DNA from: an uncultured Chloroflexia bacterium
GTDB taxonomy: Bacteria > Chloroflexota > Chloroflexia > QHBQ01 > JADMIH01
Direction: 5' to 3'
Length of the DNA stretch: 64,000 bases
Assembly: GCA_963837315.1 (NCBI GenBank)
Contig: CAWINE010000013.1
Location: forward strand, 7,099-71,098
Part shown: piece after piece, positions 14,808 to 21,632 of the stretch
Numbering within the stretch: position 1 is the first letter of the stretch
How the letters are laid out: each line of letters begins with the position of its first letter
Position numbers and translations under genes: made by a program
Notes under the pieces: model-generated
What the model saw: the letters and a program-made list of their open reading frames with translations, nothing else
The model's database searches: none
What the model was told of the DNA's origin: nothing

Positions 14808-16298
14808 ATGCAGATAGATAGCGTCGAAGCGAGCACCGAAGCAACCCTCACCTGGGCCGAGCGCCTGCAGGAGGCCATCGTGAGCCAGCAGAGCATCCTC
14901 TGCGTGGGCCTCGACCCCATCTACGAGAAGATGCCCTCAGAGCGCAAGACGGGCGACGTGGCGGGCGATATATTCGAGTACAACAAAGGCATAATAGATG
15001 GTGCCGCGCCTTTCGCCGCTGCTTTCAAGCCGCAGTACAAGTGCTATTCCGCCGAAGGCGAAGCCGGCATCACGGCCCTGCGCCGCACCTGCGCTTATAT
15101 CAAGGAAAACTACCCGCATATCCCGGTGATCCTGGACGCCAAGTACGCCGATATCGGGCATGTGCTTGAGCGCTGCGCGCACGAGGCGTTTGATATGCTG
15201 GGAGTCGACGCCGTGACCGCCATGCCCGCGCCAGGCCGGCAGGCGTTATCGCCTCTGATTTCGAGGCGAGGTAAGGGCTGTTTTATGGTGGTGCGGACCT
15301 CTAACCCCGGAGCCGGCGAATTGCAGGACATAGAGGTAGAGGGCGGCGAGCCGCTCTATATTGCCATAGCGCGCAAGATAGCCGAAGGCTGGGATCAAGG
15401 CGGAAGCGTGGGGCTGGTCGCCCCCGCCACCGATCCCGCCGTGCTCGCAGCGGTAAGAGAGGCTGCACCTTACTTGCCAATCCTCTGCCCGGGCGTGGGA
15501 GCACAAGGAGGCGACCTTGTCGCGGCTGTGGAGGCAGGGCTGGATGCAAACGGTGCGGGGCTGGTGATCAACGTATCACGAGCGATCATGGAAGCACCTG
15601 ACCCCGGCAAGGCAGCTCGTGAATGGCGCGACCTCATGGAAGCCGCGAGACTGGGGCGGAGCGAAGCGCGAAACGCGAACCATAAATCGGCCCTGGAAGA
15701 AGTGGTGTTAGAAATGTTCAAGATCGGGGCGATACAGTTCAAGCCCGTGACTCTGAAATCGGGGCTGGTGTCGCCCTACTACAACAACCTCAGGCTACTC
15801 TCCTCGTACCCTCGCCTGCTTCGGAAAGTTGCCGCTCTTATGTCAAGCAAGATGGCAGAGGTTTCGCTCAAGCCCGATATCGTGGTGGGCATTGCGATGG
15901 CCGGTATACCGTTGGCGGTGGCGCTTTCGCAATATACAGGTATTCCAGGAGGCTACGTGCGTACCGAGGCCAAAGGGCATGGCACAAAGCAGATGGTGGA
16001 AGGCGTCTGGCCCCAAGGCGCAACGGCGGTGCTTGTGGACGACGTGGTATCGGACGGAGCTAGCAAGCTCGAAGTGATCGGTCATCTCGAAGAGGCGGGC
16101 CTCAAAGCGCAGGACATAGTCGTGCTAGTGGACCGGGGCCAGGGCGGACCTGCCCTCATGGCGCGGCATGGCCTGAAGTGCCACGCGGTCGCCACTATGG
16201 ACCAGGTGCTCGATATTCTCCTGGGGGAAGGGCTTATCACGGAAACTCAGGTGGGAGAATCGCGCAAATTCATGAAGGATGCGCAGGCGCAAAGCTAG
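14808..16298 (+). CDS. pyrF: Bifunctional OMP decarboxylase / orotate phosphoribosyltransferase (PyrF-PyrE fusion)
   Basis: LCVGLDP, ILDAKYADIG, RTSNPG, PGVGAQGG; C-terminal LKSG..SPYY and the PRPP motif LVDDVVSDGAS. Confidence 0.95.
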   Translation: MQIDSVEASTEATLTWAERLQEAIVSQQSILCVGLDPIYEKMPSERKTGDVAGDIFEYNKGIIDGAAPFAAAFKPQYKCYSAEGEAGITALRRTCAYIKENYPHIPVILDAKYADIGHVLERCAHEAFDMLGVDAVTAMPAPGRQALSPLISRRGKGCFMVVRTSNPGAGELQDIEVEGGEPLYIAIARKIAEGWDQGGSVGLVAPATDPAVLAAVREAAPYLPILCPGVGAQGGDLVAAVEAGLDANGAGLVINVSRAIMEAPDPGKAAREWRDLMEAARLGRSEARNANHKSALEEVVLEMFKIGAIQFKPVTLKSGLVSPYYNNLRLLSSYPRLLRKVAALMSSKMAEVSLKPDIVVGIAMAGIPLAVALSQYTGIPGGYVRTEAKGHGTKQMVEGVWPQGATAVLVDDVVSDGASKLEVIGHLEEAGLKAQDIVVLVDRGQGGPALMARHGLKCHAVATMDQVLDILLGEGLITETQVGESRKFMKDAQAQS

Positions 16299-16302
16299 GA
16301 TC

Positions 16303-16356
16303 GTGTAAGCATGAAAAATCGGGCGCGCTTTGCGCGCCATTTTTTCATGCTTACAC
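16303..16356. terminator. Bidirectional terminator between convergent genes
   Basis: gtgtaagcatgaaaaa..ggcgcgc-ttt-gcgcgcc..tttttcatgcttacac. Confidence 0.85.
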
Positions 16357-16360
16357 TAAA

Positions 16361-17200
16361 TCAAAAGATGAACGAGCCGAGAAGGAACCCGCTCACCAGC
16401 AGCAGCACAAGGCCGTTGATGGCGTGCCACCAGCCGAGGTGGCCGAGCAGCCACTGGCTGAGAGGCACAGGGTACTCGCCGCGCAGCACCGAGATCCCGC
16501 CCATGATGGCAGGCACTCCGCGAGCCACGCCATAGACCATGCCAAGGAGCACGGCAGCTTGCAGCGACACCGCGCCCGCGGCGATCTCCCACATGAGCAG
16601 GAGGTAGAAGCCGGCGAACGGGATAAATGTGAAGATGCCCGCGCCCAGCACGATACCGTAAAGAGTGTTGCCCAACACCCTGCTGGGCCGCATCCAGCTT
16701 GCAGGCACCTGCCAGCCGATTTGAAGGGTTCGTATCTTTAGAATATTGAGCTCTTTGAGTGCGAAGATGAGTGCGAACAGACCCAATATGCCTACAGCCC
16801 ACGAGTAGCTGAACCAGGGGAGCAGCGCATGCAGGCCCTGACCTACCCAGCCAAGCAAAAGAGCCAGCAGGGCCGCGCCCACGACCGAGCCGGCGGTGTA
16901 CATGAATACCCGCCAGAGCCAGTTGATTACCTGCGGAGCCGCCTTCCCGAGGGGCACGATCACGAAGATCATGTTGAGCCCTCAGGCAGAAGATGTCTTT
17001 GACAACCCCACAACGAGCGCCAGGCCCATAGCTATCACGAAGGTCAGGCCGGTCCAGGGCCGAGCCACACCATCAATTGTGCCCGCGAGCAGAATGCCCG
17101 CAACCAGCATCAACGACGCCGTAACCAGGATACCCGTAACCCACGCCCGGACCCTGCTCGCGCTGGGCCCACTAGCCTGGTCTGCTACACTATTTGCCAA
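16361..17200 (-). CDS. MauF/DsbD-like membrane protein read through an in-frame UGA (16984-16982); candidate selenoprotein
   Basis: ORFs 16982-17200 and 16361-16972 share a frame: KTSSA-UGA-GLNMIF; QVP..W...YG..LGAG motif; next to mauE. Confidence 0.7.
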
Positions 17201-17281
17201 TCCTAGTCACCCCTTCCGATTGCGGATTGACGGATTGCTTACCTGCTGCTTATTCCGTAATTCGTAATTCGTAATTCGTAA

Positions 17282-17905
17282 TTATCTAAACCCCAGCCCT
17301 CGCAAAGTATTGCGGACTGTCGATACTGCCTGGCCGCCGAACACTATTATTACTACTGTGAAGAACGATAAGAGCACCAAAGGAACGGCAGTGGCTCCGT
17401 CGGGCGGGGAGATCGCGCTGATATGGCGTGCCAGTAAAGGGAGGTTGCCGTTGGTGGCACTATCGAGAGCCGAGTCGAGTGAGAGCCAGCCATCGAAGAG
17501 CAAGACCAGGAGGATGGAGAGCGCCATTAAAAAGACATTACGCACAACGGCCATGGGAGTAAGCTTATCGTCCGAAAGCTTGCCGAAGCAATGACACGAC
17601 TGGTCCTTGCCTCTTGAGAGATCGTAGATAATCAGGACTGTAAAGAGGATAAAAAGGAGAAACGCCCCCACCGCAGCCAGCCGTGTGAGCAGGCCGAATA
17701 TGAGTGCCAGGCCAACCGCCATTTCGAGGGGCGGAAAGACATTAGCGATAAAACGCCCCGAACCCTTCGGCAGGAATAGATACTTACTCATGCCCGCCTC
17801 GGTGCCCGGCTTGTCCACCCATTTGCCGAGGCCCGAAATGATAAATACCCCGCCCACGCAGAGCCGGGCAAAGAGCAAAAGATAGGAAGAGGTAAGAAAG
17901 TCCAT
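17282..17905 (-). CDS. mauE: MauE/DoxX family redox-associated membrane protein
   Basis: F..SG.GK, E...GL.L, SCHCFG, VRN motifs. Confidence 0.85.
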   Translation of the reverse strand: MDFLTSSYLLLFARLCVGGVFIISGLGKWVDKPGTEAGMSKYLFLPKGSGRFIANVFPPLEMAVGLALIFGLLTRLAAVGAFLLFILFTVLIIYDLSRGKDQSCHCFGKLSDDKLTPMAVVRNVFLMALSILLVLLFDGWLSLDSALDSATNGNLPLLARHISAISPPDGATAVPLVLLSFFTVVIIVFGGQAVSTVRNTLRGLGFR

Positions 17906-18055
17906 AGCGAGCACCGAAATACAAAATGCGTGCGTCTAGATGGCCAGGCGATAGAAGGCCGGTAAGCCTGCCCACCCATTATAAGGATGCACCCGCTAAC
18001 ACGTCAAGCGTCGTACGGTGAGGTAAATGTGCAGATTTATGGTGGAGAAGATCTT

Positions 18056-18138
18056 GTAGGGGCAGACCCACGTGTCTGCCCTGGTCGGATAGAGAATCTG
18101 CAACCCCACCAGGGCAGACACGTGGGTCTGCCCCTACA
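18056..18138. repeat. GTAG-type REP inverted pair (REPIN-like)
   Basis: GTAGGGGCAGACCCACGTGTCTGCCCTGG and its reverse complement; further copies near 10744, 23410 and 52402. Confidence 0.88.
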
Positions 18139-18173: not shown

Positions 18174-18507
18174 GAGCTGATGCAAAGTCGGTGTACAGAG
18201 TGCCAGGGTTGGCCTTGTCATTCTGAGTGCTGTGCCAACTAATTTATTGGGGGTAAGAGGGCATCTCTTTTGTCATTCCGAGGGGAGCGAGGAATCACTA
18301 TGGGGAGAGGGCGCTTGGATCCAGGCATAGAAGTGCCCATCGGGATTCCTCGCTCCGCTCGGAATGACAAGGCTAAGCTGGCCCTCTTTCCTCGAACGAT
18401 TTGGTACGTATGGTGAGAGTACTGATCTACAGGGCAGTCACGGACGAATCCAGACAAGGGTGTAGTTGGGTGGCTCCTCCCAAGCATTTTCTCGACTTTG
18501 CATCAGC
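18174..18507. mobile_element. Nested inverted-repeat MITE-like element
   Basis: Outer GCTGATGCAAAGTCG / CGACTTTGCATCAGC; inner TGTCATTCCGAG..GGAATC / GATTCC..CTCGGAATGACA. Confidence 0.7.
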
Positions 18508-21558: not shown

Positions 21559-21632
21559 TAATTACGAATTACGAATTACGAATTACGAATTGGCCAAACC
21601 ATTCGTAATTCGTAATTCGTAATTCGTAATTC
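21559..21632. repeat. Inverted (TTACGAA)n / (TTCGTAA)n heptamer pair
   Basis: Visible between paaA and paaB. Confidence 0.95.

Follow-up and report, generated by a model that had tools for sequence, protein, structure and literature searches.

A predicted selenocysteine-containing MauF homologue encoded next to mauE in an uncultured Chloroflexia bacterium

The stretch of DNA analysed here (the window, 64,000 nucleotides of a contig from an uncultured Chloroflexia bacterium) carries on its minus strand two neighbouring genes that resemble mauE and mauF of methylamine dehydrogenase (MADH) gene clusters. The mauE-like gene (17282-17905) starts with an ATG at position 17905, in agreement with its homologues, and encodes a protein of 207 amino acyl residues that matches PF07291 with an E value of 4.2e-29. 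Its C-H-C-F-G motif contains cysteines C104 and C106, which all 27 aligned sequences share, and the CxC that a preliminary description of this DNA had attributed to the upstream MauE is thereby borne out. Downstream of mauE, positions 16361-17200 form a single frame of 279 codons, which begins with a TTG at 17200, ends with a TGA terminator at 16361-16363 and is interrupted solely by another TGA at 16982-16984. Gene prediction had divided this frame into two ORFs of 72 (16982-17200) and 203 (16361-16972) amino acyl residues, and the preliminary description had already recognised them as one reading frame split only by the TGA; reading the codons again gives the same TCT TCT GCC TGA GGG CTC AAC ATG (SSA*GLNM). 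The range that it had named, 16361-17905, spans both the mauE-like and the mauF-like gene. If the TGA at codon 73 is read as selenocysteine (Sec), the resulting protein of 279 residues contains one Sec and no cysteine, and AF2 models it as a bundle of membrane helices (pLDDT 84.6). The start of the mauF-like gene is kept in homologues as M-A-N/E-S/T, encoded by ATG in 23, GTG in 5 and TTG in 2 of 30 genes, and every locus examined from the same genus has mauE as the immediate upstream neighbour of the Sec gene, in the same orientation.

A sigma-70-like promoter (TTGACG-18-TATAAT; 17978-18007, minus strand) is proposed upstream of mauE from its consensus match alone; it agrees at 11 of 12 consensus positions and is the sole promoter-like site between 16200 and 18300 (shuffle mean 1.1). 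At the other end, a bidirectional intrinsic terminator with a 7-bp all-GC stem and T-runs on both strands (16322-16338) would be common to the mauF-like gene and the convergent upstream gene. Judging from this layout and the consensus matches, promoter, mauE, mauF-like gene and terminator may constitute a two-gene unit. The spacer between both genes contains four tandem CGTAATT heptamers (17256-17283; no strand assigned; period 7, 4.0 copies, 100% match). The same heptamer is dispersed throughout the genome at 68 merged sites, and the repeats probably lie outside the mauE-mauF system.

The in-frame TGA is strongly conserved. It occurs in the same motif, (S/A)xT(S/T)SA-TGA-G(L/V)NMI, at 33 of 34 related loci. 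When 61 relatives were searched, matches were obtained in 37 genomes, with exactly one TGA in 37 of the 39 matched places, and these one-TGA matches extend down to 38% identity and across three families. Of 301 genomes sampled across the phylum, 8 match, and all five matches that span the Sec column have one TGA. The internal codon is TGA in each of 30 aligned genes, whose terminators are TAG (14), TAA (8) or TGA (8). A scan of metagenomes with an alignment of six sequences as query detected a distant subgroup with the motif xWSP-U-G-x-S-M-V-G-T-I, aligned members of which are 22-26% identical to the window protein; there the Sec column is encoded by TGA at 32 of 33 loci and by TGC at one (L101). 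Cysteine is found at this column in P0131, in P0147 (the protein with the TGC of L101) and in MauF of Paracoccus denitrificans. The preliminary description had proposed to look for cysteine or a conserved TGA at this column in homologues, and both are encountered. Sec appears to be commoner than Cys among the relatives sampled.

Codon variation in 20 genes from the same genus, expressed as entropy at codon positions 1/2/3, points to translation of both sides of the TGA. Codons 17-72 of the N-terminal part show the values 0.85/0.56/1.38, and the three codons that separate the TGA from the following ATG give 0/0/1.25. As variation in these three codons is confined to third positions, they are translated, and this pattern shows that translation crosses the TGA. 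The residues that follow the UGA are G-(L/V)-N or G-x-S, and the corresponding segments of Cys forms read C-G-Y-S and C-G-C-S.

Also the RNA around the UGA is under constraint. The preliminary description had noticed a hairpin 3' of the UGA, and RNAfold recovers it in a larger version (16943-16989, minus strand), in which the lower stem CCUGAGGG/CCCUCGGG (16979-16986 with 16946-16953) encloses the UGA itself. The upper stem CAUGAUC/GAUCGUG (16967-16973 with 16955-16961) carries an apical loop UUCGU at 16962-16966, which starts 17 nt past the UGA. With a predicted energy of -26.2 kcal/mol, z = -2.05 and 7 of 200 shuffled sequences folding equally well or better, the fold of the single sequence is modest evidence, and the weight of the hairpin as evidence comes from its conservation in the alignment. 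There, 94.1% of 544 cells are paired, compared with 38-51% when the partner strand is slid, and the pair closing the loop changes from C-G to U-A in two sequences. Codons 77-87 show entropies of 0.17/0.16/0.12, compared with 0.75/0.39/1.35 downstream, meaning that each position of these eleven codons is frozen, the third included; normalised codon entropy is 0.41 compared with 0.74 (Mann-Whitney p 1e-4).

In the distant subgroup, two hairpins are predicted 3' of the UGA, which differ in sequence from the window hairpin and occupy comparable positions. They are paired in 93.4% of cells (36-53% when slid), with 42 compensatory cells, and in the second one, located some 30 nt into the downstream ORF, four of six pairs covary. 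The published model for bacterial SECIS elements requires a G in the first two positions of the loop. Loops of the window subgroup (NNNGU) fail this rule, as the G is the fourth of five loop nucleotides, and a caveat to this effect in the preliminary description remains valid, whereas in the distant subgroup the loops of hairpin 1 (NGGN) and hairpin 2 (CGUGU) obey it. Like SECIS elements of the fdhF/selD type, the window hairpin is located within the coding region immediately 3' of the UGA and has an apical loop containing G-U; unlike them, it pairs the UGA itself in its lower stem and has its loop G at position 4 of 5, off the published consensus. In selD of the same genome, a hairpin with a GUU loop is found 33 nt past its UGA. 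Altogether, sequence and pairing of the hairpin enclosing the UGA are consistent with a SECIS element. A loop outside the usual search rule may explain why SECIS-based screens have missed this family.

The genome of the bacterium encodes selA, selB, selD and tRNA-Sec, each above its cut-off; ARAGORN identifies a tRNA-SeC(tca), and selD has an in-frame TGA of its own and is itself predicted to encode a Sec-containing protein. The Sec machinery that the preliminary description had asked for is therefore present. As 58 of 61 relatives have selA above the cut-off and nearly the whole class possesses the machinery, co-occurrence with it does not discriminate. The UGA that splits this membrane protein gene almost certainly encodes selenocysteine, as judged from comparative sequence data, and would be decoded by tRNA-Sec and SelB under the guidance of the hairpin at 16943-16989.

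Three other explanations for the TGA were weighed. A sequencing or assembly error, or a recent pseudogene, has nothing to recommend it except that a metagenome-assembled genome shows a stop codon here, and it is refuted by the conservation of the TGA: dozens of genomes and metagenome contigs that were assembled independently have the same codon, and both halves of the gene are under purifying selection. As an approximation to inspecting raw reads, which the preliminary description had suggested as a check for sequencing errors, soil contigs from four independent runs were compared; they cover the TGA, and none of the 40 difference rows listed (of 82) falls on it. For sequencing runs with this sequence, all shares are 0.13 or less, and no RNA run is listed. 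We consider the probability of such an artefact negligible. It is also conceivable that the UGA is read through as Trp or Cys by a near-cognate tRNA, or is recoded locally, giving a full-length protein without selenium, since the evidence for translation leaves the inserted residue unspecified. Yet the genome possesses complete Sec machinery, a conserved hairpin is situated where bacterial SECIS elements sit, and homologues have at this column cysteine, the usual counterpart of Sec. Furthermore, TGA terminates 8 of the 30 aligned genes, the window gene among them, and is thus not generally reassigned. Such selenium-free read-through seems very improbable.

Somewhat more can be said for a split gene, in which the TGA would be a true stop ending a two-helix peptide of 72 residues, and the 203-residue protein would be made separately or by re-initiation at the ATG located 9 nt downstream, with the GAGG within UGAGGG as ribosome-binding site and the RNA structure tuning the coupling. 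The GAGG precedes the invariant ATG (Met77) by 7 nt and might be a Shine-Dalgarno sequence; gene calls in databases begin at Met77 in 88 of the best 150 representatives; and since two of the three Cys forms, MauF and P0131, have Ser or Ala where Met77 would stand, this Met looks specific for TGA forms. The loss of Met77 in Cys forms fits a split gene and a SECIS stem equally well. What speaks against two separate products is that the three codons between TGA and ATG vary in third positions alone and match the residues of Cys forms, that neither TAA nor TAG takes the place of the TGA in any of the 30 genes or 32 more loci, and that a natural close relative, L101, has TGC in the same context. 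Moreover, the break would have to coincide with the only invariant cysteine of the family, and the second covarying hairpin of the distant subgroup is placed well into the downstream ORF. A split gene is therefore judged unlikely, and selenocysteine is retained as the meaning of the UGA.

To our knowledge, the function of MauF, the product of an accessory gene in methylamine dehydrogenase clusters, has remained unknown since the early 1990s. When the family alignment was compared by hhalign with MauF of P. denitrificans, a probability of 97.9% and an E value of 6.1e-13 were obtained over 234 columns, and the Sec column was aligned with the cysteine of the MauF motif STWSPCGY. The preliminary description was right in calling the protein MauF-like and in placing Sec at the position of the family cysteine. 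In addition, the family member P0122, whose cluster is named after a sequence from the cultured Fictibacillus phosphorivorans (WP_426859696.1), matches an annotated MauF directly (tblastn, E 3e-6). With MauF of P. denitrificans PD1222 (WP_011750949.1, encoded in mauRFBEDACJG) the window protein shares a similar length (279 versus 277 residues for MauF), the segment S-K-T-S-S-A-U-G, which corresponds to S-T-W-S-P-C-G, the motif L-P-x-P-Q-x-x-x-Q-V-P, and the linkage to MauE, in relatives also to MauD and a MauA-like protein. It differs from MauF in having Sec for the conserved Cys and in being paired only with mauE in its genome. From these comparisons it is highly probable that 16361-17200 encodes a polytopic MauF homologue in which the single conserved cysteine of the family is replaced by Sec. 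Since Sec occupies the one invariant cysteine of MauF, this residue is marked as catalytic and redox-active, which provides a first clue to the function of MauF.

Other searches contributed little to the identification. With the read-through protein, no family of Pfam or NCBIfam was obtained at E <= 0.1, and no model of either collection matches Paracoccus MauF. A tblastn search with the window protein against plasmids gave no match, a sequence search against solved structures yielded a chance match only (E 0.9), and Foldseek with the model against PDB returned nothing at E <= 1e-3. The best matches of VIA-align are weak (RnfA, Z 6.9; NqrE, Z 6.7; RnfE; range Z 5.3-6.9). These values are below what is meaningful for helical bundles, and the matches to RnfA, NqrE and RnfE were set aside as not diagnostic. 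CcdA was recovered by neither of the two fold searches.

The relationship to DsbD is less direct than the preliminary description had assumed. DsbD possesses two membrane-embedded redox cysteines, one in TM1 and the other in TM4. The window protein has no match above the curated cut-offs of PF02683 and PF13386, and only part of the DsbD likeness holds, in that the Cys-containing relative P0147 passes PF13386 (DsbD_2) with 34.4 bits (cut-off 24.9). Four other relatives (P0110, P0122, P0211, and P0257) stay under this cut-off with 18-24 bits, and, on sequence grounds, membership of the window protein in DsbD_2 would be transitive only, by way of P0147. Members of the DsbD/CcdA/DsbD_2 group are likewise polytopic, their redox-type residue being located where a helix is broken and a segment with Pro follows, and an extracytoplasmic thioredoxin-fold partner, which here would be MauD, is common to DsbD/CcdA as well. 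In contrast to DsbD/CcdA, Sec-MauF has a single Sec and no Cys at its TM4-equivalent G-x-G-x-F-T-F-I-P, and no second conserved Cys was found in the alignment. A DsbD-type relation in the sense of the preliminary description is thus to be corrected, because the family has one redox residue and lacks the DsbD-type pair of cysteines. For such a protein to operate in a relay, a different protein would have to supply the second thiol, and the CxC of MauE is the obvious candidate.

The preliminary description had also stated that no methylamine dehydrogenase genes are nearby. Whereas this applies to the window, a MauD-like gene is located on another contig of the same genome, next to a gene for a Tat-exported Cys-rich protein, and in relatives all four genes are united in a single operon, as at the loci L044 and L046, where mauE is followed by the MauD-like gene, the gene for the Tat Cys-rich protein and the Sec gene. 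In the metagenomes, mauE, mauD, mauA-like and Sec-mauF follow one another in this order at 11 of 36 loci, and more loci carry part of the set. A mauA-like gene directly precedes Sec-mauF in 10 of those 11, and the MauA-like proteins of the metagenome loci reach E values as low as 1e-15 with Paracoccus MauA. MauB-like ORFs are present 3' of the Sec gene at 2 of the 36 loci. In the 83.9%-complete genome of the window, no match to the Pfam model for the MADH light chain or to MauG (PF03150) was detected; the MADH heavy chain (PF06433) was not detected either, which is a weak negative as the control matched in no genome. Given that heavy chain, light-chain Pfam match and MauG were not detected, the analogy with MADH is incomplete in this genome. 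Different from the MauF system, the substrates that come into question here are divergent Tat proteins rich in Cys, with five or six paralogues, which stay under the Pfam model of the MADH light chain. The Cys-rich Tat protein is weakly similar to MauA (BLASTP E 3e-4, 25% identity), and an assignment of these proteins as MADH light chains was rejected, as the similarity is weak and unconfirmed by Pfam.

Combining these observations, a mechanism can be proposed in which the membrane-embedded selenol of MauF would exchange with the invariant CxC of MauE. Together, the MauE-MauF pair might form a split DsbD/CcdA-like conduit that passes reducing equivalents across the membrane to an anchored thioredoxin-like MauD, which in turn could rearrange disulfides, or reduce them, in MauA-like proteins that are rich in Cys and exported by the Tat route. 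Contact between the proteins, electron direction and substrate are all deduced, and we consider the chances that such a selenol-thiol relay of MauF, MauE and MauD is the function to be about even. With Sec at this position, the relay with MauE and MauD becomes a specific, testable mechanism.

Alternatively, the protein might still be a selenoprotein and transport a soft metal or chalcogen species (Cu(I), Hg, sulfide, or selenide), as a carrier or channel with Sec as ligand, in the manner of transporters of the DsbD_2/LysE type. A single Sec unaccompanied by a second Cys, unlike the two-Cys relay of DsbD/CcdA, would suit a carrier, relatives match PF13386 DsbD_2 and not DsbD_TM, and the best, albeit weak, fold matches RnfA, NqrE and RnfE are ion-motive. 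Catalogued membrane selenoproteins such as MerT-like proteins, YeeE/YedE and SO_0444 are putative metal or sulfur transporters (PMC13188914). On the other hand, linkage to the CxC of MauE, to thioredoxin-fold MauD and to a secreted protein with at least 12 cysteines is kept across distant lineages and points to protein thiol chemistry, and the inspected loci showed neither metal-binding nor chaperone genes. Transport of this kind is regarded as a minor possibility. Extending the selenol-thiol relay further, one might speculate that Sec-MauF and MauE are a selenium-dependent two-protein 'split DsbD', that Sec predominates in soil MauF, and that selenium is needed for maturing quinoprotein amine-dehydrogenase light chains and, in the Chloroflexia considered here, a new family of Cys-rich Tat proteins produced in the absence of MauB or MauG; this wider proposal we hold to be tentative and rather doubtful as a whole.

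Table 1 of a catalogue of 119 selenoprotein families from 2026 lists membrane selenoproteins including MerT-like proteins, YeeE/YedE (GUxSG), SaoP, SO_0444 and the rhodanese/DsbD-fusion TsoB, and has no entry naming MauF, MauE or DsbD_2 (PMC13188914). Sec-MauF resembles these proteins, which are small and transporter-like, in that Sec is located in or beside a TM segment and that Sec and Cys alternate in homologues. When NCBIfam and Pfam models of the catalogued membrane selenoproteins were compared with the window protein, no match at E <= 0.1 was obtained. A literature search yielded no report of a Sec-containing MauF, and supplementary lists such as BSepDB may bear on its novelty. With respect to the table of 119 families, Pfam and NCBIfam, Sec-MauF is an uncatalogued selenoprotein family, and it adds a rare case of a membrane-embedded selenoprotein. 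In public databases, Sec-MauF forms are systematically mis-annotated as shortened proteins: all 115 close matches are annotated without the N-terminal part, and nearly all of them are 203-residue fragments.

The in-frame TGA at 16982-16984 is the sole interruption between two minus-strand ORFs of the same frame, 16982-17200 (72 aa) and 16361-16972 (203 aa), and reading through it gives a hydrophobic product of 279 residues (16361-17200) with one selenocysteine (Sec) and no cysteine. Directly upstream on the same strand lies a MauE/DoxX-family gene (17282-17905; PF07291, E 4e-29), whose C-H-C-F-G motif has both Cys invariant in 27/27 aligned homologues. A sigma-70-like promoter (18007-17978; 11/12 consensus matches) and a GC-rich bidirectional terminator (16322-16338) frame the two genes as a unit, mauE-mauF. 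On ORF reading and the PF07291 match, the preliminary description of the locus as a single frame split by TGA, with mauE upstream, is accurate.

The TGA is conserved. A six-frame search finds the Sec gene in 37 of 61 related genomes (33/57 without the four unpublished carriers G017, G022, G023, and G033), in 39 matched places that cover three families of the order at identities down to 38%; exactly one TGA is present in 37 of these. The two exceptions are a weak partial match and a match to the second half of a gene, the TGA lying in its first half. Among 34 fetched loci, 33 show the motif (S/A)xT(S/T)SA-TGA-G(L/V)NMI, the remaining one being a paralogue with its own in-frame TGA. This distant paralogue (locus L051, G014:C43, about 336-2240; about 30% identity) has its TGA in L-V-G-L-U-G-Q-S and a MauE-like gene about 1 kb upstream. 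In 30 full-length genes the internal codon is TGA 30 times, while the true terminators are TAG (14), TAA (8), and TGA (8). Across 301 genomes sampled evenly over the phylum, just 8 have a match, and all five matches spanning the Sec column, one of them from an unpublished genome (G283), have one TGA.

The TGA is also translated. Entropies at codon positions 1/2/3, computed on 20 same-genus genes, give an ordinary coding signature for the N-terminal codons 17-72 (0.85/0.56/1.38) and again for codons 88-279 (0.75/0.39/1.35). Codons 74-76, between the TGA and the next ATG, vary at third positions alone (0/0/1.25) and are therefore read in this frame. In codons 77-87, where the values drop to 0.17/0.16/0.12, fixation extends to six-fold Leu and to four-fold Gly and Val codons, and the normalised codon entropy of conserved residues is 0.41 near the TGA versus 0.74 elsewhere (30 genes; Mann-Whitney p 1e-4), so that a constraint at the RNA level acts downstream of the TGA. 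The frozen stretch folds as a hairpin (-26.2 kcal/mol, z -2.05) with a lower stem CCUGAGGG/CCCUCGGG, containing the UGA, an upper stem CAUGAUC/GAUCGUG, and a loop UUCGU. Pairing is kept in 94.1% of cells (32 sequences) versus 38-51% after sliding of the 3' partners, and the loop-closing pair C-G is replaced by U-A in two sequences. The earlier reservation about the loop holds: it is NNNGU in all sequences of the window subgroup, with G-U present yet outside the first two positions.

At E <= 1e-3 a profile of the 30 proteins retrieves 2775 cluster representatives, of which 952 reach E <= 1e-10. Within the best 150, 88 start exactly at the Met following Sec and 60 have later starts or are fragments; only P0131 and P0147 are full length, each with Cys at the Sec column. 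A metagenome scan with a distant subgroup, whose aligned members are 22-26% identical to the window protein, yields 36 loci, and the codon at the Sec column was read in the 33 that match from residue 1. It is TGA in 32 and TGC in one (about 25 independent loci, several being near-duplicates), in the context xWSP-U-G-x-S-M-V-G-T-I, and upstream of it the frame stays open through a hydrophobic N-terminal extension. In this subgroup the UGA is followed by two hairpins (93.4% of cells paired versus 36-53% slid; 29 distinct sequences), with 42 compensatory cells and covariation at 4/6 pairs of the second hairpin. RNA structure is thus held at the same place despite sequence change, as a SECIS predicts and a mere ribosome-binding site does not. 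The sole natural Cys form among the 33 (L101, 3480-3551) retains both hairpins, which suggests a recent Sec-to-Cys change.

The genome of the window encodes selD (348 bits), selA (560 bits), selB (369 bits), and a tRNA-Sec (68.7 bits; ARAGORN, tRNA-SeC with anticodon tca). Every carrier of the Sec gene is able to make Sec, yet the association is non-discriminating, selA being above cut-off in 58 of 61 relatives. The selD of this genome (C23:38748-39725, locus L001) is itself a selenoprotein gene, with an in-frame TGA in S-C-A-G-U-A-S-K and a hairpin with loop GUU 33 nt past the UGA.

The serious rival for the TGA holds that the gene is split and that translation re-initiates at Met77; in its favour, a GAGG lies 7 nt upstream of the ATG and Met77 is invariant in TGA forms only. 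However, the three intervening codons vary solely at third positions and match the C-G-x-S of Cys forms, TAA and TAG are absent at the site, a TGC form occurs in an otherwise identical context, and the second distant hairpin covaries; we consider re-initiation improbable. Read-through of the UGA without Sec seems more improbable still. Contigs from four independent soil-metagenome runs span the TGA, with no difference there in the 40 of 82 difference rows covered, and a sequencing error or pseudogene has hardly any likelihood. In the favoured reading, SelB would insert Sec at residue 73.

The window protein has no Pfam or NCBIfam match. AF2 models it confidently as a helical bundle (pLDDT 84.6), with the lowest confidence in the segment around Sec, and fold searches returned nothing diagnostic. 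Its Cys relative P0147 passes PF13386 DsbD_2 (34.4 bits, cut-off 24.9), four other relatives being slightly under. Gene context is the decisive link to MauF. In two related families of the order, the gene order is MauE, MauD-like, one or two Tat-signal Cys-rich proteins, and the Sec gene. The MauD-like protein, membrane-anchored and thioredoxin-like (best model TIGR02661 (MauD), E 1e-23, under the equivalog cut-off), gave the route to genuine plasmid mau clusters and to mauRFBEDACJG as annotated in Paracoccus denitrificans. Homology to MauF follows from hhalign of a 30-sequence alignment with P. denitrificans MauF (probability 97.9%, E 6.1e-13, 234 columns), in which the Cys of S-T-W-S-P-C-G-Y occupies the Sec column, and a Fictibacillus family member matches annotated MauF directly (E 3e-6). 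In 11 of the 36 distant loci, mauE, mauD, a mauA-like gene, and Sec-mauF occur in that order, the mauA-like gene (E down to 1e-15 against Paracoccus MauA) immediately preceding Sec-mauF in 10; in two of the 36, a weak MauB-like ORF comes after Sec-mauF.

None of the 119 families in Table 1 of a 2026 review of prokaryotic selenoproteomes (PMC13188914) is MauF, MauE-linked, or DsbD_2; the passages searched in the deep-Sep and BSepDB papers mention neither methylamine, DsbD, nor membrane; and the literature searched, outside supplementary family tables that may hold an entry, links no MauF with selenocysteine. On these grounds we file it as a new selenoprotein family, the Sec form of a known, functionally uncharacterised protein, MauF.

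Within the window, mauE and mauF are the only mau-type genes. A MauD-like gene on another contig adjoins a 154-aa Tat-signal Cys-rich protein, and four or five paralogues of the latter are scattered through the genome. This family of five or six (C23:62674-63817, L094 5660-6833; C11:14871-15293; C20:9326-9745; C8:212136-212570; C8:216039-216484) has about 150 aa, a C-C-D-C-x-C motif, no Pfam family, and only faint resemblance to MauA; the member paired with the MauD-like thioredoxin adjoins giant Kelch-like secreted proteins. They are likely substrates of the MauE/MauF/MauD set. The 83.9%-complete assembly shows no Pfam light-chain match, no MauG, and no heavy chain, the last a weak negative since the control for that search gave no signal in any genome. 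The trio seems to serve divergent Cys-rich secreted proteins, not a classical methylamine dehydrogenase. The membrane-embedded selenol of MauF might exchange with the CxC of MauE, and the pair, resembling a split DsbD/CcdA, could feed reducing power to MauD, which would then handle disulfides in the Cys-rich exported proteins; we give this relay about an even chance. A soft-metal or chalcogen carrier, compatible with the single Sec and the DsbD_2-type relatives, is the main functional rival and appears rather unlikely.

Convergent with mauF lies a 496-aa ORF (14808-16298, plus strand), which by eye resembles an orotidine-5'-phosphate decarboxylase-orotate phosphoribosyltransferase fusion. The mauE promoter is closely preceded by two long inverted repeats, both near-perfect (18055-18138, 34 nt with 97% complementarity; 18270-18370, 35 nt with 91%), which could represent an operator or else a MITE or REP-like element. 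Tandem arrays of the heptamer AATTACG/CGTAATT, with 3-7 copies each, are present at 17256-17283 and about 21560-21630, and at 68 merged sites genome-wide. The arrays, a dispersed REP-like element, are very often inverted pairs, (AATTACG)n-short spacer-(CGTAATT)n, from which long intergenic hairpins would arise; the depth of 750-2200 that the array draws in soil-metagenome contigs indicates that it is common beyond this genome.
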